Source: Chiloscyllium plagiosum
Lineage: Eukaryota
Assembly: GCF_004010195.1 (NCBI RefSeq)
Contig: NC_057718.1
Span: 101,511,764-101,549,102, forward strand
DNA length: 37,339 nt
Reading direction: 5' to 3'
The notes beneath the pieces were generated by a model. That model was not told where the DNA came from, made no database searches, and saw only the letters and a list, made by a program, of their open reading frames with translations. Below, one piece after another: positions 3,587-36,751 of this stretch (position 1 is the first letter of the stretch; the number at the start of each line of letters is the position of its first letter). The position numbers and the translations under genes are program-made.

Positions 3587-4041
3587 CATGATGTGGAGGT
3601 GCCGGTGTTGAACTGAGGTGGATAAAGTTAAAAATCGCACAACACCAGGTTATAGTCCAACAGATTTATTTGAAAGTACAAGCTTTTGGTGTGCTGCTGC
3701 TTCATCGGGTAGCTAGTGGGGCAGATATATAGGACACAGAATTTACAGTAAAAGATCAAAGTGTCATACAACTGATGTGATTGTGACTTGAAAGAAGTTC
3801 TGGGATTTATATATTAAGCAATTGAAACCTGCATCCCCATTCTAAGTGATTAAAGACTTCACAGCAAACTCGGTTTGTTCAATACATCGCATCAGTTGTC
3901 TGACACTTTGATCTTTTACTATAAATTCTGTGTCCTATGTACCTGTCCCACTAGCTACCTGATGAAGGGGCAGCGCTCCGAAAGCTTGTACTTCCAAATA
4001 AATGTTGGACTGTAACCTGGTGTTGTGTGATTTTTAATTTT
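3587..4041. mobile_element. Penelope-like pLTR insertion with long inverted arms (family A)
   Basis: Arms about 3624-3783 and 3880-4041 are reverse complements; carries a hammerhead motif followed by AATAAA; family tail (ggcacctccacatcatg) lies on the minus strand at the left. Confidence 0.8.
3956..3990 (+). ncRNA. Minimal type I hammerhead ribozyme motif
   Basis: TAC CTGATGA A GGGGC agc GCTCC GAAA GC TT GTA: both core boxes, stem II, palindromic stem III AAGCTT, stem I TAC/GTA. Confidence 0.7.
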
Positions 4042-4084
4042 CCCATGATGAGGCATTAAAAGTGAGAAGGAACATGCTGAAATT

Positions 4085-6035
4085 CATTTTGACGGAACTG
4101 ATAGCTTGACATTTAGCAAACCACAATGTAATCAGGACAATCATCAAGGTATTGCAAAAGAGAAATCATGTTTGACTAACTTATTAAAATTCTTAGAGGA
4201 ATTAAAAAGCAATATGGATAATGGTGTTGTCTGATTCCTTTTTAAGCAAGTTACAGGCGACTCTGACAGAATGTTATGAATGAATTTGCCCAGGTGTCAC
4301 AGAATACCGATCTGATCAAATCACGACGAACACAAGTCAGTACCGATACAAAACAATCCCAACTTTATTGGGAAAAAAGATACAATAATCTTTAATACTA
4401 AACTAATCTTTAGTATTTAGCCCCTTAAGGTTACAATGCTTCCCGAGTCTCCTATAGATTTACGCAGTTGCTCTTTCTCTCTCTGGCTCTGTTGCTGGGT
4501 CTGGGCAGCTACTCTCTCTCCCTCTCTCGCTCTTTCTCTGGATGGTCAGCTGCTCTCTGTCTCTTGCCATGCTAGCGTCCTCGGAAGGCCTCAGACTGTT
4601 CCAAGAATGAGGTCTGCAGGTGACCCCTATTTTCAGATGGTTTGCTGTATCTTTCTATAGTTCTGGCCAATCAGTTTCAACCAAGAGTCAATCATTTGGA
4701 TGGCATCTTACTGTTAGTTTCCTTGTGTCGCAGGACCCATGCCTTTATGTCTGGGCCCTCCTTTGTTTAATGGATAAGTTGTTGGGGGTATGTCTGTCCA
4801 GGATAACTGTTGCCTTTTACATTCTGCTAAGGTCATTAGTACCTGGCTGCTGCATTTGCCCTGTATCTGGTGTGTGAGCTTGTGATTTCAGAGTTTTACT
4901 TAGCCAGCACACCCAGCATCCCTTGCTGTATGGCCAAGTTAGCGACTTGTGTTTTAGCAGTCAGGAGGCTGATACAATGGGGATCCAGAGTATTTATTAT
5001 GTTTGCAAGCCTACACAGTGTGTAAGGTTATTACATAAAATAAGAGCTCATGTTATAGGAGCTAACATTGGTTAGCTAACAGGAAGCAGAGAGGGATAAA
5101 TGGGTCATTTTCAATTTGGCAAACAGTCGCTAAGAGAGTGTCACAGGGATTAGTGCTGGGCTCACAACTGTTTACTATTTATATCAACGACTTAGATGAA
5201 TTTATAGTTGGTAAATTTGCTAATGACTCTTAGGTAGGCAGACAAGTACGTTGTCAAGAGAACATAAAGAGTCTACAGAGAATTTTGGAGAGGTTACGTG
5301 AGGGGTGAAAATTTGACAGATTCTTTGTGAAAACTGAAGACCTGCATGGTCCAGAGGGATCTGTGTGTCCTGGTGGATGGATTACAAGACATTAGGATGC
5401 AGGTGCAGCAAGTCGTTAGGAAGACAAATGGATGGTTGACCTTTATTGCACGTGGGTAAAGAAGTACAAAGGCAAGGAGGTTATGCTGCAGTTGTACAGA
5501 GCATTGGTGAGACCACATCTAGAGTAATGTGTACAATTTCCATCTCTATTTATAAAATTGCAATCAGAGCTGTGCAGGGTAGATCAGTCAGCTGATTTTG
5601 TGGCATCACGGAGTTGAGCCACGGTTGAGCAGGTTGTGATATACCCATTGGACGTTAGAAGAATGAGAGGTGACATTTTTGAAGCATATAATCTCCTGAA
5701 GGGCCTTGACAGGATTGATGCTGAAAGGGATCTTCCACATTTTTTGGAAATTCTGAAATTAGGGGACGCAGTTGATCATTTTAGGACGTCCATTTAAGAC
5801 TGAGAGAAGGATCTTTTTTAGCTCTCTCAATGCCAGGGAGCAGTGAAGGGTGGGTCACTGAATATATTCAAGGTTGAGTTAGACAGATCTTTGATCAGCA
5901 AGGAACTTGAGAGTGACTGGGAGGGAGGCTGCGACAGGAGAATTGGGTGGAGGTTGGAGTCAGATCAGCTATGATTCTATCGAATCGTGAAGCGGGTTTG
6001 ACAGGCCAAATGGCCTCCTCCAGCTCCTCGATCAT
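4085..6035 (+). mobile_element. Degenerate CR1 LINE RT and 3' region, split by a solo LTR
   Basis: RT-region motifs (tcatgtttgactaac, tttatatcaacgacttagatga, agcattggtgagaccacatctagagta); the sequence rejoins across the LTR as ggataatggggatccag. Confidence 0.8.
4225..4976 (-). mobile_element. Solo LTR (752 bp)
   Basis: TGTTG...TACA termini; 4-bp TSD ATGG (4221-4224, 4977-4980); minus-strand AATAAA near 4365 suggests the orientation. Confidence 0.8.
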
Positions 6036-6039
6036 TCCC

Positions 6040-6370
6040 TGCCCAGGTGAATGAGGAAGATCCCACCACACGATTTTGAAGAAGAGCAAGGGGTATTATC
6101 CCCGATGTCCTGACCGATCCCTGAGTCAACATCACAAAAACAAAACAGGCTATCCTCACATCGGGAACTAGCTGCATACAAATTGGTCCTACATTTCAAC
6201 AGTGGCTAAAGCTCAAGAAACTACTTGAAAAAGGGTCACTGAACCTCCCAGAGACATTAGCTCTGTTTCACTCTCCATAGATGCTGTTGAGTTTCTCCAG
6301 CAACTTCTGTTTTTATTTCAAGAAAGTGCATATTGGCTGTAAAACACTTGAGATATCTGGTGGCTGTGAA
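6040..6370 (+). mobile_element. SacSINE1-like SINE 3' half with a decayed PLE-type insert at about 6225-6320
   Basis: attttgaagaagagcaagggg...cctacatttcaacagtg...ttggctgtaaaacacttgaga matches the copies at 24760 and 28786. Confidence 0.55.
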
Positions 6371-6499
6371 CAAAGTGACATATCAATTTTCTCTTTTTAT
6401 GCATTTGGAACAGCAAGGGCTAGTAGCTTGTTATGAAGTTCTGTTTTAGGCTCGCATACTCTGAGGCCTGTGGTCAGGCCTCGCTCAGAAATAAATAAT

Positions 6500-7055
6500 A
6501 ACACTGGCATGGAGTACAAGAGCAAGCTGGTGATACTGAACTTGTATTGGAGCACTGCTTGCAGTCCTGTGAGCCACACTTTAAGGATGTGAAGAGAGTG
6601 CTGAAGAGATTTTCAAGAATGGTTTCAGGGATGAGAAACTTCTGTTATGAAGTTAGATTGGAGAGGTTGGCCTGTTCTACTTGGGGAGGCGAAGGCAAAG
6701 AGAAGATACTGATAGAAATATTAAAAAAGAATTGAGAGGTCTGTGCGGAATAGTCGGGGAGAAACTGTTCCTGCTTTTAAGAGGATCGAGAACCAGAGGG
6801 CACAGACTTTAAGTGCTGTACAAAAGAAGCGAATGCGGTGCAGGAAGGAAACTTCTCCGCACAAGTGGGTCAGGTCTGGAAAACACTGTCTGGATGAGTG
6901 GTGTAGACATGTTCAATTCGAGAGGGCGCTGGGTGTTATTTCAATCGGAATAAAATGCATGGGTATGGGGAACAGGCGGGAGAATGGCACTATGTCATGA
7001 AGCTCATTTGGAGAGCCAATGCAACACACAATGGGCTGAAAGGCCTCCTCCTACA
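6500..7055 (+). mobile_element. Old CR1 LINE 3' fragment
   Basis: EHCLQSCEPH..DV.RV.KRFSRMVSGM in ORF 6547-6735; ends tgggctgaaaggcctcc. Confidence 0.7.
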
Positions 7056-7186
7056 CCCCACAAAGCCTCTGGTCATGCAGTGTGCAAGTGATTGATGGTT
7101 GACGATCTGTTTCTCTTTTCCCCAATCTGATCCTCCCTCCCCCTTGCCAAATGTACCAGCAACAGCACCCATCCCACCCTCCAAAT

Positions 7187-7625
7187 CATAGTTATAGAGC
7201 AACACAGCACGGAAACAGATGTTTCGGTCCAACCAGTCCATGCTAAACATAGTCCCAAACTAAACTAGTCCCACCTGCTGGCTCCAATTGTACCCACATC
7301 CACCACTTCCACATGTGAACTATCCTCTGTGTCTAGAATTTGCCTTTCAGGTCTTTTTCAAATCTTTTCCCTCTCACTTTAAAAATATGGCCCTTAGTTT
7401 TGAAATCCCTGTCCTTGGGAAAAGACAGCTACCATTACCCTCATTATCTTATACACTTCTGTAAGGTCTCCTCTCAACCTCTTATGCTCCAGGGAAAAAT
7501 GTCTCAGCCTATCCAGCCTTCCTTTATTACTCAATCCTCCCAAACCCGGCAACATCCTGGTAAATCTCTTCTGACCCTTCTCCAGCTTAATAACATCCTT
7601 CCTATAACAGGGTGAGCAGAGGCCT
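7187..7625 (-). mobile_element. CR1/HER1-like LINE 3' fragment
   Basis: Tail on the left (acagcacggaaacag...cggtccaaccagtccatg); very similar to 36752-37190. Confidence 0.8.
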
Positions 7626-8309
7626 CAATCTTCAACATGTCCATGCATGCTGCGTACTGTACCATCTTCGTGAGTCTGAGTTAAGGCTGGGGGCACTGGT
7701 TTGCCATATTCTTCGACATCTGATCATGTGACCATCATGCCACATCTGATCACATGATATCTGATTGTATGACATTTGTTCGCAGTTTGAGAATATTGTT
7801 ACCACTTTCTCTGGGGTTTTGTATACAACTCCTTAACATGTACTTGATACGCACAGTTGGTAAATGCAATCTTTGTTTCTGATTGCAAAACTCAGGCGTG
7901 ATTACACATGGGAGTAAACGCTCGAGTCTAAAGATAAAATTGTCTTTCAGCATTAGGCATGCAGTGTTGTGATTTAATCAGTCTGATGCTATTTCAGTAC
8001 TCTCGATAATTTATTTGCTGATATTTAGAGCAGGATTAATATTCTTGGTAATTTTGCTGATTGTTAAGTGGCCATCAAACCACTTGAAAAGTATAAAGTA
8101 AGTCTATTACTGGTGAGTCTTGACTGATGAACTTGCTGTTTGTACAACTGGAGAAATCATTTGCTCAGAACTATAGAACCATTCAGCTGAACATGGATAG
8201 TGGAGAAAAGTAATGAGTGCTGAAGGGGAAATGAGAAAAATATCTGGAAATCCACAATGTAAATGAATTGTCAGCACGCATTATGTAGCAAAGAGCATAA
8301 GTAAGGGTA

Positions 8310-9158
8310 ACCCAGTGGATGTTATTTATCTAGATTTCCAAACATCTTCAGTAACAAATGGCTACGTAACAGACCGCAGGTCTCATGATTAAAATCCAGC
8401 ACCATCGGGACCAAGGTCACGCTGAATTTTGGAGTTGCTTGGTACTTGGACAATGTGTCCAAATGTTATCTCACTGAATGTCAAATAGGACACTTTAAAA
8501 CAATGTCCAGTTTTCATTCAGCCAAATTTTGGACGTACAACCAATAATGCAAAAGATGGAGCAGGATGGACGGTACGGAGGCGAGGGGTAGGAATCCAAA
8601 CTGGTAGGTAGTGGAAAGTGGGGTCTCAAAAGAATCTCTGATGGAACTACTGTTGTTCACAGTGTATGTTGATTTTGACTTCTAAATTTGCCAAAATTGG
8701 AGGAGGGGTGGTCAGTACTGAGGATATGTCATCAGTTGCAAGAAAAGGTGATTAAACTTACACAATGGGCATGTATAATTGTTGAATGAATTTAACACAG
8801 TTGAGTGTGAGATGGTACACAGTAACAATAACGAGGGTGAACAGTCTGTTCACAAGGACAGAATTGACAAATGGTGTGTTAGCCTTTATCGCAAGAGTAT
8901 TTAAGAGCAGAAGGCAGCACGTCTTGTTAAAATTGTTTTGAACCTTGGTGGGACTGCACCTGGAGACCTGTGTACCCTCCTCATTCACTAAAGCAGCTTC
9001 TTGAAATAAAAGTTTAAAAGACATTTGGATAATATGAATAGGAAAGGTTTGGAGGGATAGGGGTCAAGCACAGGCACATGGGACTAGTTTAGTTTGGGAA
9101 CACGTTCAGCAATGATTGGTTGGAACCGAAGGGTCTGTTTCCATTCTGTATGACTCGA
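8310..9158 (+). mobile_element. Highly decayed CR1 RT pieces plus a younger CR1 3' end (about 9008-9158)
   Basis: ccagtggatgttatttatctagatttcca (VDVIYLDF), accttggtgggactgcacctggag, ccgaagggtctgtttcc. Confidence 0.6.
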
Positions 9159-10043
9159 TTTCAGTGTCTGTCTTCATTATCACCAGCTCGTTGTCTCCGA
9201 GTTGATCATTGAAGGCTTTGTCTCCAACATGTGAACATTCTCATGGAAGTGTATATTCTTTGTCTTTGGATAAACTATTGATTTCAACTCGACTGTCTGT
9301 TATCTAATCCACATTGAATCTTGGCCACTTGTAGTCAGTTCATTGTGGTGTCTATTTTAAGACAGTAATTTGACCCTTTTCTTAAAAACATTATCTCAGT
9401 CAGTGAGAGTCCGAGGTATTAAGTCAGATGATGGAATTCGAAAATCTATATTTTTCATGAATGTCGCACCACAATACAAGTTGGAAGTGTAAAGTGATCT
9501 TGGTCACTTTAAGCAGTGTTGTCTCCAGGTACAATTGCCAAGTAAAGTGACTCACTCACCTGCATCCTGGAGGGATGTGAACTGTCACTTGGAGCAGTCC
9601 AATTTGAATTCTTCTCGATGATAGGGCAAATGGCTGATTGGCTGCAAGAAGTCACATTCCAGGTTTTACAGCTTGCCCAAAAACGCTATTCCCACATTCT
9701 CGGCAGCAAGCAGTGGCCTGGGATTCCCAGATTCCACAGGTAGTTGTGCAATACCTCTCTTGATCCATGGACTCCCCCTCTCCCTCCACCATTCTGCATC
9801 TTGCTGTGTTAGCTCTCAAAGCACCTGCACTTGTTGTCCTCTGCTGGACATACTTACCGCTGTTGTAGAAACAGGAAATGCTGCAGAAACCCGGCAGCAT
9901 CTGTGGAGAAACAGCGTTGGTGTTTCAACACTGATATAACTCTTCTTTGCCTTCTGCTGTCCTCCTTCTACCTTGCCTGACCCACACCTTGCTCAGCCAG
10001 CCCCTCAATTCCCTAAAGTTTTAAGTCTCAATCCATAGTATTA

Positions 10044-10623
10044 AAATTCAGGTTATAGTCCAACAGGTTTATTTGGAAGCACTAGCTTTCATAGCGCTGC
10101 TCCTTCATCAGGTAACAGGTGGTTGATGAAGGACAGCACTCCGAAAGCTAGTGCTTCCAAATAAACCTGTGGGACTATAACCTGGTGTTGTGTGAATTTT
10201 AACTTGTTGAAATTTTAAAGGAATACTTTTAAACAGTTTCTATGAAGTAATTAACCCATTAAAGGCAAGTATGATATTTCATTACATAATTAGTCTTCAT
10301 CCTTCTTATAAGGACAACTGGTTGACGGAATGAAATATCATGCTTGCCTTTAATAGGTTAATTAATTCATAGAAACTATCTCAAAGCACTTCTTTAAAAA
10401 TCTAAAAAGTTAAAAATCACACAACACCAGGTCATAGTCTCACAGGTTTATTTGGAAGCACTAGCTTTCGGAGTGCTCTTTCTTCATCAAGTAACAGGTG
10501 GTTGATGACGGAGCAGCGCTCCGAAAGCTAGTGCTTCCAAATAAACCTATTGGACTATAACCTGGTGTTGTGTGAATTTTAACTTTGTCCGCCCCAGTTC
10601 AACACCGGCAACTCCACATCATG
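10044..10623. mobile_element. Composite double-palindrome PLE insertion (family A)
   Basis: TSD tccatagtatta / tccataatatta (10032-10043, 10624-10635); two pLTR hairpins around an internal inverted repeat; four partly mutated hammerhead motifs. Confidence 0.8.
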
Positions 10624-10799
10624 TCCATAATATTACACATCTCAAAATTGTAAGATTTGCTTTCCCAGCTGTAACTGGAGATCAGCTGATTTCCTCACAG
10701 GGACGGGAAGGTGGAAAATCGGGGCAATAAACATTTTCAGCTACTTATGAACATCTTTAGTGACCACTGTCAAAGCACGGTACAGGAATGTGTGGTCAG

Positions 10800-11233
10800 G
10801 TCATAGAATCATACAGCAGGGAAACAGACCTTTCAGTCCAATTCATCCATGCTGACCAGACATCCCAATCTGGCCTAGTCCCATTTGTCAGCACTTGGCC
10901 CACATCCCTGTAAACCCTTCCTTTTCATATACCGATCCAGATGCATTTTTAATGTTGTAACTGTACCAGCCTCCTCCACTGCCTCTGGCAGCTCAATCCA
11001 TAAGTTGCACCACCCTCTGTGTGAAAAAGTTGCCCCTTACGTCCCTTTTAAATCTTTCCCCTCTCACCCTAAACCTATGCCCTCTAGTTTTGGACTCCCC
11101 CACCTTGGGGAAAAAATACCTTGTCTGTTTACCCTATCCATGTCCCTCATAGTTTGATAAACCTCTAAAAGGTCAGCCCTCAGCCTCTGACGCTCCAGTG
11201 AAAACAGCCCCAGCCTGTTCAGCCTCTCTCAAA
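10800..11233 (-). mobile_element. CR1/HER1-like LINE 3' fragment
   Basis: catagaatcatacagcagggaaacagacc tail; matches 20685-21090. Confidence 0.85.
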
Positions 11234-12394
11234 TCTATTGCATTTTGCAAAAGTAAAAGATAAAGCTTAGAAAGTCGATCTTTCTGCAGCAGCTTCAGCT
11301 CATTCTGACTGAGCAAGCTATATAAATAAGGAAGGAAAGAGAGAGAAAAAAACAGATGTTGAGGGAAAAATCACTCAACTTGTTGAGATGAAGTATTTTC
11401 ATTGATTGGCAGTGATGAACCATTTTGTTGTCAGGGTCCACTTTGTGCGATCGGTCTGATTTTAGCTGGAGGTATGATCTGACTGCCTGCATCGCTGTTG
11501 TGAAACTTCCCTGTTTTTAAAGATTTTGGTTTTGTTGTTAAGCTTTTCCTTTTCATTAACATAACAATAGCAAGATTGCCTGCTGTGAGAAAATGAGATC
11601 TGCACTGCAGGGTTGGAAACAACTGGGCAAGATTCGTTTGAATCTACAGGTTCTGCTCCATGCTAATTCTCCCCATTGTTTCATGGGTGTCCGTACCTCC
11701 CTGGTGCAGTGGGTAAGCTCTTGAGTGTAAGGACGTGTTCCTACAAAAGCAGGTCCACTTTCCTTCTGATAGTCCCTCCATCTGTCTGAGGTGTTGGCAC
11801 AGTGGTAAAGCGACTGGACTAGTCAGCCAAGATCATATTCTGGGGATGCAGTTCAAGTCATGATAGGTGTTGGTGGAATTAATTCTGGCTTGAAAGCTAA
11901 TCACAGTAATGGTGGCCGTAAAACTATCATTTCTTGTGGAGAGTGGCCATCTCATTTGCCTCTGGTGAAGCAGCTTGGTTCACCTATTCCAAAACTCACT
12001 GTGCTATGTTTCACGCTTCTAGTTTTCAACTCATCCTCTGTCTTCGTGATTCAGAATGAAATTCATGCCTTCGGACAAAGCCAGAGTGGAATTTGTTGTG
12101 AACATACGCTCTCTTGGTGCTGGACTTTCACAGAGTCGGAATGGTTAGCTCAGTTGGTGATACCGCTGAGTCAGTAAAACACCAACAGCATGGGTTCTGT
12201 TCCCGTTCTGGGTGAGGTAGACTTGGGACCTGCATTCTAGTCCTGCCCCTGAGGGTGGCAAGCAATGGTGAACCACCATGGACAACAAACTGCCCGGAGA
12301 AATGGCTCAGATTGAAGTGTCAGCAGACAATGAGCTCAAAGGGAGATGACCCTATACCAGCAATGACTTGGACTTGTACCCTGGAGCCCCCAGG

Positions 12395-12620
12395 CAGCTG
12401 GTGGAATTTAAATACAATTAATGAAATGTAGGTGCAGTAGCGGAGACCAAGGAACCATCATCGATTGTTGTAGAAACCCATCAGGTTTGCTACTGTCCTT
12501 GAGGGAAGGGAATCTGCCCTCCTGGGCAGACACCGTCACTCCGGACCCACAATTGTTTCTCTGTTCGGAAGTCAGGTCAAGCAATGCTGACCTTTCCGAC
12601 AGCGTCCACATCCCGTGACA
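12395..12620 (+). mobile_element. SINE body (same family as 2668-3300)
   Basis: ggcagctggtggaatttaaat...agggaagggaatctgcc...cacatccc. Confidence 0.6.
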
Positions 12621-13164
12621 GAAAACATTTTGAAAATCACCCTCAAGTCTTAAGTCTTGATTTTCGCTGTCGATGATGGTAAGTTCCCACAGATGGTGTC
12701 GAACACAACTGTTTGTTAGAATAAAAGATTATCCTTGATTGCAAGCTGAATAGCTCCCTGGTAAAGATTTAAAATGGTTTCAAGGGTGACTGCATGTGGT
12801 GACACAGCAGCTCCCTCCCAGGGTAGAGATGACTGGCTCATCCCTCTGTCTCTATTCTGGCTGGGAACTGTGCCGTCTCTATCTCCAGAATCAGCATTGT
12901 CACGCATCACTGCGATTGATTGTACATACAATATTTGGACTCAGTAATCCTTAAATCAGAGATTGTTGGCAGCAATTAACACACAGTCCCATTATTGTGA
13001 CTCGGAAACCCTGCAACAAGAACCAAGTTAAAGTTAACCCTTTTAGCACTAAGTGCGGAGGTAAAAAGCAACTTGCATTTATTTATGGCCTTTCACAGTT
13101 TCAGGACATCCCAATGATCTTCAGCCGATGTTTGAAGGGTCATCAATGTTGTATGGAAATATCG

Positions 13165-14125
13165 CGCTCAGTTGGCTGATTTGTGATGCCAACAGCACGG
13201 GTTCGATTCCTTGCACTGAGACTACCATGAAGGACTTGCCTTCTCAATCTCTTCCTTCTCCTGAGGCATATAAGAACATAAGAACTAGGAGCAGGAATAG
13301 GCCATCTGGCCCATTAAGCCTGATCCGCCATTCAATAAGATCATGGCTGATCTTTCTGTGGACTCAGCTCCACTTACCCGCCCGCTCACATAGCCCTTAA
13401 TTGCTTTACTGTTCAAAAATCCATCTATCTTTGCCTTAAAAGCATTTAACAAGGTAGCCTCAATTGCTTCCCTGGGCAGGGAATTCCACAGATTCACAAC
13501 CCTCTGGGTGAAGAAGTTCCTCCTCAGCTCAGCCCTAACTCTGCTCCTCCTTATTTTGAGACTATGTCCCCTAATTCTAGTTTCACCCTTCAGTGGGTAC
13601 AACCTCCCAGCTTCTATCTTATCTCCTCCCTTCATAATTTTATATGTTTCTATGTGTCCCCCTTTATTCTTCTAAATTCCAATGAGAATAGTCCCAGTCT
13701 ATTCAATCTCTCCTCATAAGCCAACCCACTCAACTCTGGAATCAACCTAATGAACCTCCTCTGCAGCCCCTCCAGTGCCCGTACATCCTTTCTCAAGTAA
13801 GGAGACTAAAATTGTACACAATACTCCAGATGTGGCCTCACCAGCACCTATACAGCTGCAACATAACCTCCCTACTTTTAAACTCAATCCCTTTAAAAAT
13901 GAAGGACAATATTCCATTTGCTTTCTTAACTACCTGTTGCACGAGCAAACCAACTTATTGTGATTCGTGCACGAGGATACCCAGGTTCCTCTGCACCACT
14001 TAAATCTCACATTTACACGGTGACCCTCAGGTTAAACCACCATCAGTAGTCTCTCTCTCTATCTCTCTCTCTAATGAGAGAGCAGCTTAATGGTCCTCCA
14101 AGACTATGGCAACGTTACCTTTGAC
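13165..14125 (+). mobile_element. tRNA-head SINE split by a CR1 insertion
   Basis: gctcagttgg and gggttcgattcc boxes; resumes near 14019 (ggtgaccctcaggttaa); unsplit relative at 18405-18607. Confidence 0.65.
13268..13997 (-). mobile_element. CR1 LINE 3' fragment
   Basis: ORF 13285-13635 (TRIRGHSLKIR...FFTQRVVNLWNSLP...FKAKIDGFL); tail ataagaacataagaac. Confidence 0.9.
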
Positions 14126-15344
14126 CTTTATGGAAACATGGTCACCAATTTCCACACAGCAAACTCCCATAAACAGCACTCTGCCACTGACCAGACCATC
14201 TGTCTTTGTGATTGTTCTGGTTCACTGGGGTGATGCACTGGATATTGAACCCTGGTATTCCCTGAGTCACCTAAAAGTGAAAGATTTTTTTGTAAAGGTA
14301 TGTAAATATCACCAATGCATCTGCCTTTCCAACCCAAGCTAAGGGAAGGCACAGGCCAGGTTTCTGTACTTCACAAGAATGACTCTTTGTTTCCAAATAA
14401 TTAGACTCTAGCTACGGATAAACCGTTATAAACCATTGACGTTTAGCTACAAATTCAAACTCTAATCCCCTTGTGAATTCCTCCCTATGCCCACTCAGAC
14501 AGACCAACAGACAAGGTAAAATAGGATTGTTTGACAGAGGGGAAAAAGAGGGAAGACAGTTCAGCCATCTTTGATCCCACACTCTGTTGTTAAGATGATC
14601 TTTATGACTGTCCTTACATAGCCTCATCTTTCTCTGAGTGCTTGCAGTGGTTGTTAACATACACAAAATGGCTGGTTCGCTTAAACATGTTTAAAGTCAT
14701 ACCTTGCAACAAATGTTACAGGAAAGATAAACTAGTTTTCTTCAGCTCTACAGTGAGTTTTTACTGCAGAGAACAGAGAGACCACTCTGGAGCCAGAGAA
14801 GAACACTTCCCTTCCCTTGCTCTCTGTACTTGTTCCCAGCTCCAAGCTGATCTGTTCCTGAGAGCCAATCATACCATTGTTGGTACGCAAAAAAGTCTTC
14901 TAAAGTATAAAGTGGGTACCTTCGGTCTCTGTCCATGTTTTCCCACTTCCCAACCTGCTGAAGTCCTGCCATTGGTTATCAGATTTCAAAATGTCTTTGG
15001 CTTATAAGGGGAAAGGATCAATCCTCAGCTGCCTCCCTTAACCTTGTCTGCTCACAGTACTGAGGACGTTGGAAATCGATATCTAACAGAAAATGCTGAA
15101 AAATTAACTTTGCATTTATGGAAAGGCAAACTCAATCCCAATGAACCAGGCTCAAACAGAAACCTTAATTCTGACTTTCTGTCTGATGCTGAGGGAAATC
15201 CAGAGGATTTCATGTGCTTGTTTTTTCATTCCTCATTAACAGGGTCTGGGACATGGAATTTCCAATATTCAGTCCACTGCGCCTCTTATAGCAAAATCCT
15301 TCTCAACAAACTTTTAGCAGGTTGTAAATTATACTCTTTTCTTT

Positions 15345-15860
15345 TACAGGATATGGGTGTGTCACTGGCTGAGTCAGCATTTATTGTCCGTTTCTAGTTG
15401 CCCTTGTGAAGGAGCTGCCTTCTTGAACCGCTGCAGTCCATGTGCAGTAGGTACACCCACTATTCCATTGGGAAGGGTGTTCCAGGATTGTGACCCAGCG
15501 ATGTGAAGGAACGGCAATATATTTCCAAGTCAGGATGGTGTGTGATTTGCAGGGGGTGCTGTTCCCATGTATCTGCTGCTCTTACCCTTCTGGGTGGTAG
15601 GGTTTGCAAGATCAGAAGGTGATATTGTAACTACTTTGTTGAGTTGCTGCAGTGCGTCTTGTAGATGGTACACACTGCTGTGTGTCAAAGGTTTGGGGTG
15701 CAAATGTTTAAGATGGCGAATGGGCTACCAGTCAAGCACAGCTTCTCCTGGATAATGTTGAGCTTTTTCTGTGTTGGACAATCCAAGCAAGTGAGGAATA
15801 TTCCATTACACTTGTGCCTTGATGGTGGACAGGCTTTGGGGAGTCAGGAGGTGAGTTATG
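15345..15860 (-). mobile_element. Old LINE 3' fragment (L2/CR1 clade)
   Basis: gagctgccttcttgaaccgctgcagtcc; opposite-strand relative at about 34680-34975. Confidence 0.6.
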
Positions 15861-16596
15861 TGTCAATAATTATAGTGCGAACAAAATAACTAATAGTTAC
15901 CTGGATCATTGTGTTATTGGAGCAAATGGTTAACCAGCTTTTAATCAGACTATCAGCATTTTCACCTATAAAATGCCCCACAACACAAAGGATTATGGAA
16001 TGATATCACATATTAAACTATTGCTTCAGTTTACAATTTGAAAATTAAAAGCTTTTTGCTACATAGCCATGCATTAAACTTTAACAGGCCAGGTCTGTAC
16101 TCTTTTATATTAATATGAAATATTTTGCAAATAAAGGTAGAGGTCATAGAAGATTTCCATGGAAATAAAAGTAGACCAAAGGCTCCTGAAACAGCCCTCC
16201 AACTATCCTGTCATTTTAAGATAAGTGCGGTTTAGTTCATTAAAAAATTGCTAACTTGAGATTTAATTATTAAAAACAGGTTCATCTGAGCAGTAGATCA
16301 AATAAATAACCAGATCCAAATATTGAGTATTTGTAATGTGCAGTTAAGCACTGGTTTTCAGATCTTGAAAGTTTAGAAGCTGACCAAACAATGTGTACAT
16401 GTTTAATATTTGAACATTATGAACAAAGTAGTGCATAAGTTAACCCACTTCATACGCGTTACTCTGAATTTATCACTGTGACTGACATCTGCTGCTCATT
16501 ATTAGTGACAGGAAATATCTTAAAACTGCTCTTCAGCCTCGCTGACATTATTTCAGCCAGTTTCTGATCCACACCAATGAAATCATGATTTGGAGG

Positions 16597-16674
16597 TGTG
16601 TGTGTGTGCACGCGCGTACGTGTGTGTGTACATGCGTGCCTGTGTGTGTGTGCGTGTGTGCGTGCGCGCTGTGC
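16597..16674. repeat. Imperfect (TG)n/(CG)n microsatellite
   Basis: Near-continuous purine-pyrimidine alternation. Confidence 0.9.
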
Positions 16675-16724
16675 AACGTGTTATTTCATTCACAGCATGC
16701 CCTTTGCAGACTTAATTTTTTTTT

Positions 16725-17070
16725 CAGTCATTCACGGGATGAGGGCATCACTGGCTGCGCCAGCATTTATTGCCCATCCTGAGCTGTCGAGAGGGTACTT
16801 AAGAGTCAACCACATTGCTGTGGGTCTGAAGTCACATGTAGACCAGACCAGGTAAGGATGGCAGTTTCCATCCCTAAGGGGCATTAGTGAATCAGATGGA
16901 TTCTTCCAACAATCAACACTAGATTCACAGTTAGCATTGGACTCTTACTTCCAGATTTAGCTGAGTTCAATTTCCATGGCAGGATTCCGACCAGGGTTCC
17001 CCAGAACATTACCTGGTTCTCTGGATTAACAGTCCAGCGATAATACCACCGGATTATCACCTCCCCAGTG
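16725..17070 (-). mobile_element. tRNA-head SINE (family of 2668-3300)
   Basis: Reverse-complement match, e.g. cacatgtagaccagaccaggtaaggatggcag. Confidence 0.75.
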
Positions 17071-17407
17071 CCTCATATGGTGAGATCCACAGTTGGACAG
17101 TTGAACTGGATATAGGATGAGAATTTTGGGTGGCTGTGCATTACTAAACTTTGATGGATTACCAGTGAAATGTTAAATTCCATTAAAAATCTAGTGACAA
17201 CCCTAGGACAAAAAAAGTACAAACAAGTTAATCATAATTAGGCTTCATCCTTCTTATATGGGCAACTGGTTGATGGAATGAAATATCATACTTGCCTTTA
17301 ATGATGTTAGTTACTTCATAGAAACAACTTAAAAGCACTTCTTTAAAAATCTAAAAAGTTAAAAATCACGCAACACCAGGTTGTAGTCCAACAGGTTTAT
17401 TTGGAAG

Positions 17408-17442
17408 CACTAGCTTTCAGAGCGCTGCTCCTTCATCAGGTA
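17408..17442 (-). ncRNA. Minimal type I hammerhead motif (antisense arm)
   Basis: Minus strand TAC CTGATGA A GGAGC agc GCTCT GAAA GC TA GTG; G-U wobbles in stems I and II. Confidence 0.6.
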
Positions 17443-17452
17443 CAGACAAAAC

Positions 17453-17487
17453 CACCTGATGAAGGAGCAGTGCTCCGAAAGCTAGTG
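17453..17487 (+). ncRNA. Minimal type I hammerhead ribozyme motif
   Basis: CAC CTGATGA A GGAGC agt GCTCC GAAA GC TA GTG; stem I CAC/GTG. Confidence 0.72.
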
Positions 17488-17594
17488 CTTCCAAATAAAC
17501 CTGTTTGACTATAACCTGGTGTTGTGTGATTTTTAACTTTGTACACCCCAGTCCAACACCGGCATCTCCAAATCATCTTTAAAAATCAAGTAAC

Positions 17595-18607: not shown

Positions 18608-19841
18608 TGATCTCTTACTCTGGCTATGACAAGAAAAAGCCCCCCAAAAAACATACATGACATAAAATCGATACTGCAATTTTAATGCTGAGCACAAGTT
18701 GTTTGAAGGTTTAAATCTGTGGGGTTTTTTTTGCTGATCATCACAACACACAGCAAAGCTGCAGAACATAACCCTCAGCAGAAAAGTTAACTTCGTTTTT
18801 TTCCCAAAACATGTTAGCTGAATTTGTGATTGAAGATTGGTAAAAGATACTTCACAGCGAGTAGCAGGGAAGAAATGAACAGACATTACCTAAGTGTGTG
18901 ACCTGGCAAGCTTACCTCCCAGTCCAACCATTGATGGTCAGTTTCTCTGATATTTTACTCAGGGCAATCATTATTGCTTGGCTTGTAACTGATGATTACG
19001 TGGATGATTTATTTCAGAATTGCACAGATTGGAGCTCCATGTTCATCACTGATCACAAAACCTAGCCAATAAAGTGATGACCAAGTCTATCTTTCTGTAA
19101 TATGGTGGAATCCCAGTGATAATGAAACTGAGAGCTTGCCGCTGTAAAGAATGGTAGCCCATGATGTATCATCGGCCGATGAGCAATACCAGCTGAGCTG
19201 GACTTCCCTCTCTTTGCTGAGCTGCCACACTCTTTTGTCATTTGTTGGCCTCACAAGGAGATGTGCTAATGCACATTCTTGCAACAGTCACCCAATGTAT
19301 TTGTCTGTCCAGCAGCCCCTCCTTCTTAGAGTGGTGCTGGAAAAGCACAGCAGTTCAGGCAGCATCCGAGGAGTAGTATGCTTGACTTGAGTTCAAATGG
19401 GTAATTTTGGTGAGGAAAAGCATAAACTTGAAGTTTCAGCTTGACTACACTCAGAGGGCTGGTTTGAGTTGCTCCTGCTCCAGAGGTGTGTCATAAATGG
19501 CCTTGAAGGTAGCCCAGAGAAGGTTCACTCAGCTGATACCAGGTATGGAGGAACTGTCTTCGGACGACAGGTTGAGTAGACAGGGCCTTCTATGGTCGGA
19601 ATGTAGAAGAATGAGAGAGGATTCCATTGATCCATATCAGATTCTTAGGGCATTTGGCAGAGTCGATGTAGAGCGATTATTCCCCCTTGTGGGAGAGTCC
19701 AGGACAATTATGCTTCCTCTCAAAATAAGGAGTCACACATTTAAGACAAAGATGAAGAGCAATTTCTTCTCAGAGATTTGTGAATCTGTGGAATTCTTTA
19801 CCGCAAAGGGCTGTACAGACTGGGTCATGAAGTATATTCAA

Positions 19842-20320
19842 AGTTTGGGGTGGGACACAGTAGTTCAGTCAGTTAGCACTGCTGCCTCATAGCACCAGGG
19901 TCCCAGGTTCGATTCCAGCCTCGGCCGACTCTCTATGTGGAGTTTGCACGTTCTCCCTGTGTCTGCATGGGTTTCCTCTGGGTACTCCGGTTTCCTCCCA
20001 CAGTCTAAAGATGTGCAGGTCAGATGAATTGGCCATGCTAAACTGCCCATAGTGTTAGGTGCATTAGTCAGGGGGAAATGGGTCTGGGTGGGTTACTCTT
20101 CAGAGGATCAGTGTGGGCTTGTTGGGCCGAAGGGCCTATTTCCACAATGTAGAGGATCTAAACTTATAAATTACACGACACCAGGTTATAGTCCAACAGG
20201 GTTATTTTGGAAGTACAAGCTTTCAGAGCACTGCTTCCAAATAAACCTGTTGGACTATGACCTGGTGTTGTGTGACTTTGAACTTTGTACACCCCAGTCC
20301 AATGCCGGCACCTCCACATC
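19842..20320 (+). mobile_element. Internally deleted family A PLE, interrupted by a SINE
   Basis: 12-bp TSD aagtatattcaa (19830-19841, 20321-20332); pLTR sequence at about 20168-20320. Confidence 0.75.
19846..20165 (+). mobile_element. HE1-type V-SINE
   Basis: tRNA head (gttagcactgctgcctca, ggttcgattcc), V domain (tggagtttgcacgttctcc...ccggtttcctcccac), LINE-like tail gggccgaagggcc. Confidence 0.9.
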
Positions 20321-20684
20321 AAGTATATTCAAGGCTGAGACAGACAGATTTTTGATCAGGATGGTCATCAAGGGTTATGGGGAAAAGGGTAGAAGTTGAG
20401 GATTTTCAGATCATCCATGATCTCATTCGATGGCAGAGCAGTCTTGATGGGCCGAATGGTCTATTTCTGCTCCCACATCTTCTGGTCTTATAACCTAACT
20501 AAACAGGTTGATCCAAAACATTTGTACTCGGAAGATACAAGCCCCTAATTCTCATGTTTGTATCTCGCTTTTGAGGGTGCTGAAGGGGCAAACTTAGTCA
20601 ACAGGAAGGGAGTGGTTTTGAAAGAACTACCGAGCCTGATGGTGTGAAACATAAAACTTTACCCCCATCACAGAACCACTTGGA

Positions 20685-21090
20685 GTCATAGAGACGTACA
20701 GCATGGAAACAGACCCTTCGGTCCAACCTGTCCATGCTGACCAGATATCCCAACCCAATCTAGTCCCATCTGCTAGCACGCGGCCCATATCCCTCCAAAC
20801 CCTTCTATTCATATAACCATCCAAATGCCTCTTAAATGTTGCAATTGTATCAGCCTCCACCACTTTCTCTGGCAGCTCATTCCATACAGATACCACCCTC
20901 CCTTCTTACCCTAAGCCCTCTAGTTCTGGACTCCCCCACCCCCAGAGAAGAGACTTTGTCTATTTACCCTATCCATGTCCCTCATGATTTTATAAACCTC
21001 TGAGGTCAACTCTCAGCCTCCGACACTCCAGGGAAAACAGCTCCAGCCCCAGCCTTCTCCCTCTAGCACAAACCCTCCAACCCTGGCAAC
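20685..21090 (-). mobile_element. CR1/HER1-like LINE, non-inverted 3' segment
   Basis: ORF 20627-20896 (VWNELPEKVVEADTIATFKRHLDGYM) plus tail. Confidence 0.9.
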
Positions 21091-21487
21091 TGGATCTTGA
21101 TCAGATTGACCAATGGACTGAGAAGTGGCAGATGGAGTTTAATTTAGATAAATGTGAAGTGCTGCGTTTTGGGAAAGTAAATCTTAGTGGGACTTATACA
21201 CTTAATGGTAAGGTCCTAGGGAGTGTTGCTGAACAAAGAGACCTTGGAGTGCAGGTTCATAGCTCCTTGAAAGTAGAGTCACAGGTAGATAGGATAGTGA
21301 AGAAGGTGTTTGGTATGCTTTCCTTTATTGGTCAGAGTATTGAGTACAGGAGTTGGGAGGTGATGTTGTGGCTGTACGGGACATTGGTTAGGCCACTGTT
21401 GGAATATTGCATGCAATTCTGGTCTCCTTCCTATCGGAAAGATGTTGTGAAACTTGAAAGGGTTCAGAAAAGATTTACAAGGATGTT
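21091..21487 (+). mobile_element. CR1 LINE RT C-terminal segment, inverted relative to its 3' part
   Basis: ORF 21132 (W)QMEFNLDKCEVLRFG...RDLGVQV...LVRPLLEYCMQFWSP...LERVQKRFTRM. Confidence 0.9.
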
Positions 21488-21779
21488 TCTCCTAGTTCAT
21501 GACAGGTTCAATCCCAGGCTTGTTTAATGCCCTCTCATCAACCTGGGCATCTCAGTTGGAAGCTGCTAATCATCCTTTCTGCTCACACCTTGGATTTTCC
21601 GAGTTCCTTCTCAGTTCCTCAACGGATGTGTTTCCAGACAATTTAATTCATCGATGTTAGTTGGACATACGCCACTTCAGTCTTGCTGTCTTCTTCAATC
21701 TTATTGGCTTTTGACACATGTCCTACAAAGTGTAAGTAATGTCAACCAAAACAGACTGACACGCAGTTAGGATAATCAC

Positions 21780-22943: not shown

Positions 22944-23048
22944 CAGAGGTCACACAACACCAGGTTATAGTCCAACAGGTTTATTTAAAATAATGTGTGA
23001 CTTCTGGCTTTGTCTTCCCCAGTTCTACACTGGCACCTCCACATCATG
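22944..23048 (+). mobile_element. Short family A PLE remnant lacking the ribozyme
   Basis: cacacaacaccaggttatagtccaacagg and ggcacctccacatcatg; flanks cctctcacagt / cctcccacagt. Confidence 0.75.
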
Positions 23049-23682: not shown

Positions 23683-23976
23683 TTAGAATCCCTACAGAGT
23701 GAAAGCAAGCCATTTGGCCCATCGAGTCTATACCGAAGAGCATCCCACCCAGACCTATCCCCCTACCCTATCCCTAATCCAACTCTGGACACTATGGGCA
23801 ATCCATCCTAACCTGCACATCTTTGGCCTGTGGGAGGAAACCGGAGCACCCAGAGGAAACCCATGCAGGCACGGAGAGAATGTGCAAACTCCACACAGAC
23901 AATCACCCGAGGCTGGAATTGAATCTGGGTCCCTGGCGCTGTGAGGCAGCAGTGCTAACCACTGAGCCACCGTGCC
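23683..23976 (-). mobile_element. HE1-type V-SINE
   Basis: Reverse complement of the tRNA head and V domain (tgggaggaaaccggagcacccagaggaaacccatgcag). Confidence 0.9.
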
Positions 23977-24759
23977 ATTCCTCCACCACTGGAAGTGGCC
24001 TGACATTTTATTGAGTTCAAAACAGCAACAACAACAACAGCCCTCATTTACGTTGCACCTTAGAATGTATCAATGTTCATCCCCAGCGAGAATGTTGTCA
24101 ACTGAGACAAGCAACGTACCTTGAGTCAAGGACTTCAGCTCAAGTGTGGGACTTCAGCTCAGCATAACATGGCTAACTAACTCCGGGGAAAATGTGCCGA
24201 CCTACTTGGGTTGGCATGAAAGATCCGCAAAGGAATCTTAAAGGGGCAGAGCTGGCTGAATATTTTTGGCCATTACGTTTCCCTCAACCAGCGCCAGGAC
24301 AGCAAGTTAATGGGAGAAGGCGTGTGTTTGGCAGGATAATTATGGACTGAGTGAGAGAAAATGAGCCACAATGATTGTGTGAGTGTAAAAGCTAGAGTTC
24401 CAGACATTGATTCCTAGGATGAGAGGGCAGCATCTTCAAAGGTAGCCCACTGAAAGTGAGGAAATGAGCTGAAAAACGGTTCAATTTCTGCTCTTGAAAA
24501 TCAGTAAAACGTTCTGTGAGAATCCCAAGCAGGCGCTCCTATTTATTTCCTTTTTTGCCGATAATTCTGGTTAGAATTTACCGTGGCTGAAATTTTGCAA
24601 ATGCTTGTGAACCAGCCAATGAAATCCGAAATGTGAATGAACATCAGGATCTGTTTAGAATCAGCCGCTTAAAATATATGTCAACTAATGAGGAACAGGG
24701 ATTTCGACATGTGTGGCCCACCAAAGCCCGACGTTTCCTTTTGGCTTGTATGTCAGCTG

Positions 24760-26316: not shown

Positions 26317-26554
26317 ATAGAATCCCTACGGTATGAAAGCAGGCCCTTCAGCCCATTGAATCCACACCGGCCCTCCAAAGAGCATCCCACCTAGATCCAG
26401 CCCCCGACCCTATCTCTGTAACCCTGCATTTCCCATGATCAATCCACCTAACCTGGACATTTTGGGACTGTGGGAGGAATCCGGAACACACAGGTAGTCA
26501 CCCAAGGGTGGAGTTGAACCTGGGTTCCTGGCACTGTGAGACAGCAGCGCTAAC
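26317..26554 (-). mobile_element. V-SINE (internally deleted), head interrupted by another SINE
   Basis: Matches 23683-23976; the head continues at 26881 (taaccactga). Confidence 0.8.
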
Positions 26555-26880
26555 ATGGTGGCATAGTGGTTAGCACTGCTGCCTCACAGCAGCAGAGACC
26601 CGGGTTCAATTCCCGCCTCGGGCAACTGTCTGCATGGAGTTTGCACTTTTTCCCCGTGTCTGTGTGGGTTTCTTCCGAGTGCTCTGGTTTCCTCCCATAG
26701 TCCAAGGATGTGTAGGTTAGGTGAATTGGCCAGACTCAATTGCCCGTAGTGTTAGGTGCATTAGTCAGGCGTAAATGTAGGGGAATGGGTCTGGGTGGGT
26801 TGCTCTTCAGAGGGTCGGTGTGGACTTGTTGGGCCGAAGGGCCTGTTTCCACACTGTAGGGAATCTAATCTGATCTAATC
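26555..26880 (+). mobile_element. HE1-type V-SINE, near full length
   Basis: tggcatagtggttagcac, gggttcaattccc, V domain, (aatct)n tail. Confidence 0.92.
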
Positions 26881-29177: not shown

Positions 29178-29980
29178 AGAACATACAACATAGAACATTC
29201 CAGCGCAGTATAGGCCCTTCGGTCCTCGATGTTGCACTGACCTGTGGAACCAATCCGAAGCTCATCTAACCTACACTATTCCATTTTCATTCATACGTTT
29301 ATCCAATGACAAAATTCAATGCCCTTAAAGTTGGTGAGTCTCCTACTGTTGCAGGTAGTGCGTTCCACGCCCCTACTACTTTCTGAGTAAAGAAACTACC
29401 TCTGACATCTGGCCTGTGTCTATCGCCCCTCAATTTATCGCTATGTCCCCTCGTGCTAACCATCACCATCCGAAGATAAGGCTGTCACTGTCCACCCTAT
29501 CTAACCCTCTGATTATCTAATGTGTCTCAATTATGTCATCTCTCAACTTTCTTCTCTCTAACAAAAACATCCACAAGACCCTCAGCCTTTCCTCATAAGA
29601 CCTTCCGTCCAAACCAGGCAACATCCGAGTAAATCTCCTGTGAACCCTTTCCAACACTTCCACATCCTCCCTATAATGCAGTGACCAGAACTGTATGCAA
29701 TTCTCCAAATGTGGCCGCACCAGAATTTTGTATAGCTGAAGTATGATCTCATGGCTCCGAAACTCAGTCCCTCTACCAATAAAAACTAACACATTGTATG
29801 CCTTCTTAACAACCTTATCAACCTGTGTGGCAACTTTCAGGGATCTATGTATATGGACACCGAGATCTCCCAGCTCATCTACACTACCAAGAATCTTACC
29901 ATTAGCAAGTACTCTGATTTCCTGTTGCTCCTTCCAAAGTAAATCACCTCACACTTTGCTGCATTAATCGCCATTTGCCA
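29178..29980 (-). mobile_element. CR1 LINE 3' fragment
   Basis: ORF 29517-29792 (LYKILVRPHLENCIQFWS...LERVHRRFTRMLPGL..SYEERL). Confidence 0.9.
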
Positions 29981-30760: not shown

Positions 30761-32669
30761 TCAAAGGTCATTGGCGCATGTTTCTCTCTGGGTTTAGCAG
30801 AGTGCACTGACTTTTGAAGTGGAAGATGTCATTATATTTTACACATCACGTCTCCACAAAAGAAACTTATCCCTTAAATAACCCTCTCCTCGGGCTTGTG
30901 TGCAAAGTCAGGGGTTCAGCGGTGTAATCATTTCAATCAAAGTAGGCTGAACGATGACCTGATATGGGTCTTTCGTGTCATGAAAACGTTTGATAAAGTA
31001 AACACACAGACAATATTTCTCCTTGTGAGGGGAGACCGAGCTAACGAGTTGTTTCCAAGACTGGTTGCCTTTGGAGCCCAACATTCCCATTGGAATTTTT
31101 CTTGAGCTGCTTTATCCTGGCGAACACTCCTGCCATCAAGCTGTGAATTCAGGTTGTGTTTTCACGTTTAGGTTGGTCTTCCGAGACCTAGTGGAGTTGT
31201 ATTTCATCACTTTCTCACGTCTGGTTTCAAATAACGTTCCGTTCTGTTAGGTATCATTGTCAGACTGACAAGCCTGTGCAGTGTACTCGACAATTCCACT
31301 TGTGACAGATCAAGTGCCATCAATATTTTAAAAATGATCAGATATTCCCAGGAGAGACACAAGGACCAACTATACACCCGTGTTCGGAAACATATCCTCT
31401 CATCTGGCTGTGGTACAGAGGCCTAAGGCAGAAAATCAAGCTGATGTTCCCCCCAGAGTCTGTCAGTGATGGGCTTGTTGAATACTAAAAAATATTACAA
31501 GGTAGTAGAGTACAATCATTGCTTTGGCTAAGCTTGTGTGATGATCACAGTTCCAACCCTGGCACCCTCTATTGTGCACTAACTCTGTCTGATGGTTATT
31601 GATCTCTGTTAGCTCTGGCCCAATAAATACAAAAGGCTGACCAAAGAAATTCTCGGCACTGATATTCCTGCTGAGCTTTGAGTATTGCATCGCAACGGTC
31701 AACAAACAAATAGTTGGCTGTTTTCATTAGAGCCACGTGTTTTAGTCGGTGGATAGCAGAAGGCAATTTATTTGCCCTGGAAAGGAAATCCTTAAGTTGG
31801 TTTGTTAATGGGCTTGTTCGCAATTATTTAACACTGCGGACCTTATCATTAGTTTCTCTTTTGTGTGTTTTGAAGCAAATACCGAAACTGCTGGGTGGAA
31901 AGAAACCCTTTCCTCCAGTGCTGCTTTCAATAAAAAGCCTTAAGATTGCTCTTAACCAAAACAAAAAGGGATTGTTAGTTAAAAACTACCAAGGATGAAG
32001 TAGTGAACTAACGTTGCTTTACGTCATTTGTATTCAATTGATGGAGAGCTGAAAGCAGTACAATAGTGAGCTTTCTTCTCCATAACAGGAGATCAGCACA
32101 TCTGAGGGCTCATCTGTCTGTTTTCTTGCCCTTTGTGCCTTCTTCATAAACCACCCCAATGGCAAAGTCTGTGAAGGATGTAAATGAAACATATTGGTTC
32201 AACTCATCTTATCTTCTTCAGAATGAAGCTCCAGTGTGGGAGTTAAGTTCCAAACATGGTTGTTTCTTTTTAACTTTTATTCTGTCTGTCCCCCAGTCCC
32301 CAATCCTAGCTCCTGTAACATTGCCCCCTTCGTGATCCTCTTCGTCCCTTATGGATGGAGTGAAGGGTTGGTTTCAATTGAAGATGCAGAGGGTGGGAAG
32401 CTGATTGTAGCGAGTGCCTTTTCAGCTTGATTGGCAGTAGGGCTGGCTCATACAAGATGTGCTAGTTGGCTGGTATTTAAGGCAGGGGGATTGTAACCCC
32501 CCAGATCCTAAAATCTCAAACCTCGTCACCAAGGGTGGATGGAGAACCTGTGTCAAATTGCTGCCCCCTGGAGGCCATTGGTTTCCAGGTGAGCTGGGAG
32601 TCTCAGGCAGGAAGTGACATGGAGTCCAGGTCCAGAAGTTCTTTCTCCCTGACATTATTTTCATTGTGT

Positions 32670-32920: not shown

Positions 32921-33097
32921 GCCCCTACATAAGGAAACTACCTCTCAACATCTGTCCTGTCTGCATTTCAATCTGAGCACTGATATTCAAAGCAAACAGG
33001 ACTTTTTCCCTGCTCACATCCTGACCATTCCCAGTGAAAACCTGTCCAGTGAGGTGGGCTATTGACTCGTATCCTACATTTACCCCTTCAGCTAACA

Positions 33098-33296
33098 CTA
33101 CGGGCAATTTAGCATGGCCAGTTCACCTGAACTGCACATTTTTGGACTGTGGGAGGAAACCGGAGCACCTGGAGGAAACTCACGCAGACACAGGGAGAAT
33201 GTGCAAGCTCCACACAGACAGTTGCCTGAGGTGGGAATTGAACCCGGGTCTCTGGCACTGTGAGGCAGCAGTGCTAACCACTGTGCCACCATGCCA
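33098..33296 (-). mobile_element. HE1-type V-SINE 5' part
   Basis: Reverse complement of the tRNA head and V domain. Confidence 0.88.
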
Positions 33297-33309
33297 CTCA
33301 CAATGTCCC

Positions 33310-35729: not shown

Positions 35730-35891
35730 TCCAATTGGCATTTCCCTGCACTGGGATCCCTCAGAAATAATCCAGTAAAGTTGGAGAATTCAGTCAAGTT
35801 GAATGTTACCCAGGAAATGGTTGATGATTCAAATCCCAGTCTAACTCCTAGATAACTATGAAACTGACCCTCCCCAACATTAATGACCCCT
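35730..35891 (+). repeat. Donor copy of a 162-bp local duplication
   Basis: Matches 36590-36751 with 3 mismatches. Confidence 0.95.
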
Positions 35892-36589: not shown

Positions 36590-36751
36590 TCCAATTGGCA
36601 TTTCCCTGCACTGGGATCCCTCAGAAATAATCCAGTAAAGTAGGAGAATTCAGTCAAGTTGAATGTTACCCAGGAAATGGTTGATGATTCAAATCCCAGT
36701 CTAACTCCTGGATAACTATGAAACTGACCCTCCCCAACATTAATAACCCCT
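36590..36751 (+). repeat. Templated copy of 35730-35891 inserted in a CR1 tail
   Basis: Bracketed by the 13-bp direct repeat cccttcggtccaa (36582-36594, 36748-36760). Confidence 0.93.

Follow-up and report, generated by a model that had tools for sequence, protein, structure and literature searches.

Inverted, putatively Penelope-like insertions with minimal hammerhead ribozyme motifs in the genome of Chiloscyllium plagiosum

Hammerhead motifs and the insertions that hold them

The window analysed here, a stretch of 37,339 nt from Chiloscyllium plagiosum (contig NC_057718.1, positions 101,511,764 to 101,549,102), contains five short insertions (loci A to E) built of inverted arms, several of which carry minimal hammerhead ribozyme (min-HHR) motifs of the type found in Penelope-like elements (PLEs). 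The arms were collected by blastn of the plus-strand arm of locus C (C+) against the window, which gave 12 arms, four of them in locus B. They extend over 3587-4041 (A), 10049-10622 (B), 17352-17576 (C), 20160-20321 (D) and 22950-23047 (E).

A descriptor of the type I min-hammerhead, applied to both strands of the window, found three matches, whereas 200 first-order Markov simulations of the window averaged 0.015 and never exceeded 1. These are exactly the three copies claimed as min-HHRs in an original prediction made from the sequence alone. The copy in locus A (A+, 3956-3990, plus strand) is intact, with stem I TAC/GTA and a 5-bp stem II. Locus C holds an intact copy on the plus strand (C+, 17453-17487, stem I CAC/GTG) and an intact-core copy on the minus strand (C-, 17408-17442), in which stem I is TAC/GTG with a U-G pair and C11.1 has changed to U at a CpG. 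Cleavage had been predicted after 3987 (CUU) and 17484 (CUA); residue H17 was assigned to these same positions, and to 17411 in the minus-strand copy. A looser pattern gave eight matches versus 0.52 expected, a number reached in none of 100 shuffles; seven are arms of the family and the eighth, at 32069, lies outside it. The AATAAA claimed beyond the motifs is likewise present, at 3997-4002 (plus strand) beyond the A+ ribozyme, and starts 10 nt past H17 in the four arms inspected. An Rfam scan of the window (23 matches, E up to 10) returned no hammerhead family. Its matches to miRNA families, at loci A, B and C, lie under the gathering scores and are explained by the hairpins of these loci.

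The descriptor is passed by three of the 12 family arms. Both halves of the core are found in eight arms, the minus arm of locus D (D-) retains the 3' half only, where GAAA-GC-UU-GUA is all that is left of the ribozyme, and the core is absent from three. The damaged copies expected near 3677-3712 and in 10080-10535 are borne out by defects of core and stem. The minus-strand copy of locus A (A-, 3677-3711) has stem II broken in addition to the changes U4>C and G12>A, the latter at a CpG, and among the four ribozyme arms in 10049-10622 C3 is lost in three while one stem II pair is broken in the fourth. The features retained are nevertheless regular across the arms, with an extra base between A9 and 10.1 in all eight that have both core halves, the palindromic AGCU (15.2-16.2) unchanged in nine of nine aligned arms, and a 10.1-11.1 pair that is G-C in six of nine and G-U in three. 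The view that changes in stem II are G-U compatible holds for the three intact copies and fails across the nine arms, where 79.5% of the stem II cells are paired. In A+ the change is a private A>G giving G-U, since 3969 is A in 96% and 95% of the family depth in the public DNA runs X1 and X9 (described below). As the C11.1>U of C- is a CpG change that turns G-C into G-U without selection, compatibility of this kind is weak evidence.

The original prediction listed intact and damaged ribozymes correctly, without noting loci D and E or the inverted arms, tails and target duplications. At all five loci the arms are inverted head-to-head and exactly one outer arm bears an additional tail of about 36 nt; the surviving portion of the element is its last 37-260 bp. 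Direct repeats flank loci B (12 bp), C (12-14 bp) and E (11 bp), while that of locus A (7 bp) is at chance level and locus D has none. With the same search rule for target-site duplications (TSDs), 11 bp was reached at one of 150 random positions. Locus A (3587-4041) is an inverted pair of the UU/GUA subtype with its tail on the left (minus) arm, a 104-nt unpaired centre and a weak TSD (3587-3593/4044-4050) that overlaps the tail end. Upstream of the A+ ribozyme lies further element sequence (3782-3955, plus strand), probably 3' untranslated region, with stops in all three frames of the copy and family depth reaching 3782. Locus B (10044-10623) is a single insertion, composite and palindromic, whose four ribozyme arms, all damaged, lie at 10049-10113 (minus), 10124-10205 (plus), 10403-10492 (minus) and 10503-10622 (plus, with tail). 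It is flanked by a 12-bp TSD with one mismatch (10032-10043/10624-10635). Locus C (17352-17576) is an inverted pair of the UA/GUG subtype, with 90-nt arms that are 93% complementary, a 12-nt centre, a tail at 17541-17576 and a TSD at about 17340-17351/17576-17587. The inverted pair of locus D (20160-20321) has its tail on the right, no TSD that could be found and a ribozyme that is mostly gone, and that of locus E (22944-23048) has its tail on the right, no ribozyme and an 11-bp TSD with one mismatch (22933-22943/23049-23059).

Affinity and abundance of the family

Metazoan PLE min-HHRs are reported mostly as single motifs and also as opposite-strand pairs 100-700 bp apart (PMC4209133, Cervera & De la Pena 2014). 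The motifs of the window resemble them in the CUGANGA core, the extra base after A9 and the G10.1-C11.1 pair, as well as in GAAA-G-C-U-H with a palindromic 15.2-16.2 and no stable helix III, a short stem I and an A/U-rich 3' side. The closest row of Fig. S3 in that work is Chrysemys picta bellii, which also ends in GAAA-GC-UU followed by an AAUAAA-containing stretch; no cartilaginous fish is present among the rows examined. The copies described here differ from the PLE motifs in their 5-bp stem II with a 3-nt loop, their 3-bp stem I and the lack of a linked PLE open reading frame (ORF). A literature search for shark Penelope/Neptune retrotransposons gave no match, and a passage from a broader one only lists Penelope as present in the whale shark.

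The anatomy of the insertions points in the same direction. Insertion units of endonuclease-bearing PLEs are described as an inverted 5'-truncated copy with a 30-40-bp tail (PMC8557442, PMC3846280), and the loci share with the units of Penelope/Poseidon, Neptune and Nematis the head-to-head arms and a 30-40-bp tail at one end. They also resemble published solo pseudo-long terminal repeats (pLTRs) in the capture of unrelated adjoining sequence (PMC8557442, PMC3846280). TSDs are a further common feature, of 11-14 bp in the window and about 8-10 bp in published endonuclease-bearing PLEs. Like PAc, the Poseidon element of Anolis carolinensis (PMC11167929), the family has a pLTR hammerhead upstream of the tail that marks reverse-transcription starts. 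The PAc ORF begins at stem II and spans the tail (PMC11167929), whereas the translated arms contain no ATG-led frame from ribozyme through tail. The tail ends in CATG at three of the five loci (3587-3590, 10620-10623 and 23045-23048), and one might speculate that the parent ORF started at this ATG. Non-LTR retrozymes (bioRxiv 10.64898/2026.07.22.740005) are likewise short, non-coding and pLTR-related and carry type I hammerheads. They are defined by a tandem arrangement with at least two complete motifs, whereas the loci here are inverted and form no tandem array. The direct motif pairs inside locus B are damaged.

The fit of the motif to the published consensus and the PLE anatomy of the insertions thus support the Penelope-like class named in the original prediction, and membership would rest on these two features. 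A search of the window for a reverse transcriptase (RT) or GIY-YIG ORF found none in 234 stop-to-stop frames of at least 55 aa (frames with X left out). A Pfam scan of these frames gave three weak matches below the cut-off, including an RVT_1 fragment at 5066-5230 (E 0.009). When longer proteins were searched with the 61-aa frame of A-, a single candidate and no match at E up to 1 resulted, which is weak evidence.

Public reads and contigs were placed on window positions 3782-4100 at 80% likeness; the summed contig depth obtained in this way does not equal copy number. In total, 18,211 of 23.6 million contigs fell on this 319-bp stretch in DNA run X1 (organism A) and 19,820 of 36.0 million in DNA run X9 (organism B), which makes the family very abundant in both. 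Beyond about 4041 family depth ceases, and 345 (X1) and 426 (X9) contigs have a loose end behind 4041 that corresponds to the tail. Of the depth in X1 and X9, respectively, 59% and 56% have A at H17 and 54% and 51% have G at position 1.3, while in the nine aligned arms of the window A17 always occurs with GUG and U17 always with GUA. There are accordingly two family subtypes, with roughly equal shares in both DNA runs. Exact-pattern scans of viral, metagenome and prokaryote genome contigs for the motif, and blastn against plasmids, gave nothing, and a search across sequencing runs listed no RNA run that contains it.

Family depth also falls about threefold directly upstream of the ribozyme core (3947-3968) in both DNA runs, which may reflect clustered 5' ends or divergent upstream subtypes, both being compatible with the data. 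A third upstream consensus before 3957, pyrimidine-rich and seen in 176 and 184 contigs with an agreement of 0.4, may come from a further subfamily or from a mixture of flanks. The role of PLE hammerheads has been called unclear (PMC8557442), and the abundance of this family, together with its two stem I subtypes, makes it well suited to testing that role; it also adds to the min-HHR class described in 2014.

Proposed re-copying, decay and predicted folding of the insertions

The right half of locus B matches 17233-17576 over 344 nt at 86.6%, including 119 bp of the left flank of locus C. It contains the left target duplication of locus C without the right flank, and has a 12-bp duplication of its own. 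The flank concerned (17233-17351, plus strand) recurs twice in locus B, once inverted (89% over 120 nt and 87% over 76 nt), and nowhere else in the window. The centre of locus B holds pieces of the centre of locus C in both orientations, and locus B appears doubled into a larger palindrome. The simplest account would be that the PLE machinery, starting from the tail of locus C, copied this locus anew to a site 7 kb away, in which case the template probably ran unbroken through the C+ cut site; a DNA-level duplication may be an alternative origin. With locus B derived from locus C, the arms of the two are not independent.

As to the covariation claimed for stem I, within the window TAC/GTA is found in both locus A arms, CAC/GTG in C+ alone and TAC/GTG in C- and the two minus arms of locus B (B1- and B2-); the T of the latter three sits at the inversion junction and may be non-element sequence. 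Over nine arms the covariation score is matched by 332 of 500 shuffles, and none of eight pairs is changed on both sides relative to the commonest pair. An upstream end like that of C+ occurs elsewhere, namely in 184 RNA reads whose loose end precedes 3963, and in X1 and X9 alike the consensus of contigs clipped before 3957 has C as its final letter, with low agreement (0.4). A compensatory difference between the subtypes (TAC/GUA versus CAC/GUG, that is U-A versus C-G) is plausible, as the original prediction held, but it is a single event seen in one CAC arm, and the score over the nine arms does not rise above that of the shuffles.

As regards decay, 9 of 36 cells at CpG sites are changed, compared with 33 of 676 elsewhere. 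Outside CpG sites, 4 of 84 core cells are changed, two being junction bases, a frequency close to that of the downstream DNA (21 of 454). Although these counts are small and non-independent, they suggest that the ribozyme cores decay like the adjoining DNA, mostly at CpG.

The inverted arrangement has direct consequences for folding. Since the arms point apart, read-through RNA of either strand reaches the antisense arm first, and pairing of this arm with the motif predicts that none of the three intact motifs folds. In three whole-locus folds, and in three prefix folds that include the upstream arm and stop shortly after the ribozyme, the probability was 0.000 for each of the eight ribozyme pairs. 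Locus C forms one hairpin (-150.9 kcal/mol, z -23). Even for the isolated motif the probability of stem I is 0.001 in A+, 0.04 in C+ and 0.15 in C-, and the intended fold is not the minimum-energy one for C+, as monomer or dimer, and only partly so for the A+ monomer. There is no nearby partner motif for a dimer, and the two motifs of one palindrome lie on opposite strands. The folds therefore lend little support to the proposal that the intact copies are self-cleaving modules in any overlapping transcript, each predicted ribozyme being masked by its antisense arm. No host gene was identified within the window, so an overlapping transcript is itself hypothetical.

Taken together, the loci are very probably dead, 5'-truncated pLTRs of an abundant endonuclease-type PLE family, in which the hammerhead is a masked and decaying passenger. 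Following the published mechanism, the PLE protein would have begun reverse transcription at the tail and halted either at the hammerhead or a short way upstream, and a second, inverted arm would then have been made, giving a palindrome between target duplications. In the parent elements the hammerhead would be under selection, with two subtypes that pair stem I differently, and would probably cut weakly, either as a dimer via the AGCU palindrome or together with the PLE protein. In the relics, by contrast, the ribozyme would be a passenger that decays like the neighbouring DNA, mostly at CpG. Several points weigh against this account. No RT or GIY-YIG ORF is linked to the family among the 234 frames of the window, and the decay test has low power, with non-independent arms (B from C) and two of the four core changes at the junction. 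Equilibrium folding disregards proteins and kinetics, and a transcript whose start lies within the 104-nt locus A centre would not be masked, even if its stem probabilities are still about 0.01 (stem I) and 0.10 (stem II).

Possible alternative roles of the insertions, and other repeats

It is quite possible, if short of probable, that the relics act as portable polyadenylation cassettes: host or read-through transcripts would use their AATAAA, and the ribozyme would stay idle or now and then cut off the tail about 28 nt upstream of it. This is compatible with their being dead pLTRs, and the evidence comes from RNA run X21, a poly(A) single-cell library of which about 2 in 100 was examined and 1,676 of 12.96 million records were placed. 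In 668 of its reads a loose end is found behind 4002, the consensus of which (agreement 0.86, median 81 nt) is 13 family bases followed by oligo(A), whereas element sequence continues at this position in both DNA runs. Moreover, the first-mate minus-strand depth falls from 853 to 318 behind the AATAAA. If the first mate is antisense, as is usual, this suggests that the family RNA is ribozyme-sense and ends about 28 nt past the predicted cut. On the other hand, the signal comes from one run, and its sister run X22 of the same sample has none in 8.3 million. Only five of the 1,676 reads are 99% like the window copy, so that the window loci are no more than candidate sources, and priming on genomic A-runs of particular copies is possible. 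The RNA reads show no place at which molecules start or end in large numbers, the cut site included, although a poly(A) single-cell library could hardly show the 28-nt 3' product. Should unique mapping confirm that the pLTR signal serves for polyadenylation, the relics would have a real effect on host transcripts; a literature search on this subject gave a single review.

The X21 family reads over 3997-4015 comprise several haplotypes, some with a deletion at 3985-3989 (99-118 reads). An excess of A>G/T>C in RNA, as expected of hairpin editing, is unsupported (48 of 182 places versus 13 of 76 in DNA, p 0.15).

The original proposal, that latent modules cut any transcript passing through them at 3987 or 17484, extended here to 17411, is very unlikely. 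Three copies do retain every core base, stem I and stem II, the family-sense polyadenylated RNA of the one run makes intermolecular dimer partners conceivable, and the anole PLE ribozyme cleaves when given PLE protein (PMC11167929). Against this stand the masking on either strand, the unfavourable fold energies and the opposite-strand placement of the two motifs of a palindrome, which cannot share one RNA, together with the apparent copying of locus B through the C+ site without a break. Published experience is similar, as a single min-HHR is reported to show no cleavage and dimers to be slow (PMC4209133; dimer cleavage work of Lunse et al. is cited in PMC6765202), and eight of nine predicted Xenopus dimers gave no product (bioRxiv 10.64898/2026.07.22.740005). 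Cleavage by the anole ribozyme is described only with PLE protein, is not required for insertion in vitro and leaves no RNA-seq ends at its site in the data reported there (PMC11167929). A combined form, in which sense solo relics serve as host 3'-end modules, with the poly(A) site fixed by their AATAAA, and an intact hammerhead about 28 nt upstream cuts off the tail with PLE protein or a second family RNA, is very unlikely; if true, it would make host mRNA stability subject to a transposon-dependent switch.

A self-standing non-autonomous palindromic family spreading as a fixed unit, similar to miniature inverted-repeat transposable elements (MITEs) or to the non-LTR retrozymes, is very improbable: strong terminal-looking inverted repeats with TSDs, the likeness of loci B and C, and a report of retrozymes in one chondrichthyan genome (bioRxiv 10.64898/2026.07.22.740005) would favour it, but centres and truncation points differ across all five loci, the tail is on one end only, none of eight tandem-repeat rows overlaps a locus, and the B-C likeness takes in the TSD and flank of locus C, which argues for re-copying of C. 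Both the MITE and the retrozyme readings were rejected on the locus-specific centres, asymmetric arms and lack of a tandem array.

Besides the putative PLE relics, the window contains other repeats. A SINE-like (short interspersed element) repeat of about 200 bp, which we take to resemble shark SINEs, occurs in several copies and both orientations (19872-20080, 23807-23980, 26554-26777 and 33089-33299). Decayed fragments resembling 3' ORFs of long interspersed elements lie at 5066-5230, recognized by the weak RVT_1 match, and at 13285-13671, 19497-19892, 20988-21527 and 29517-29948, recognized by eye. Finally, a 162-bp direct repeat with 98% identity (35730-35891 and 36590-36751, 860 bp apart) may be a recent duplication or an LTR-like pair.

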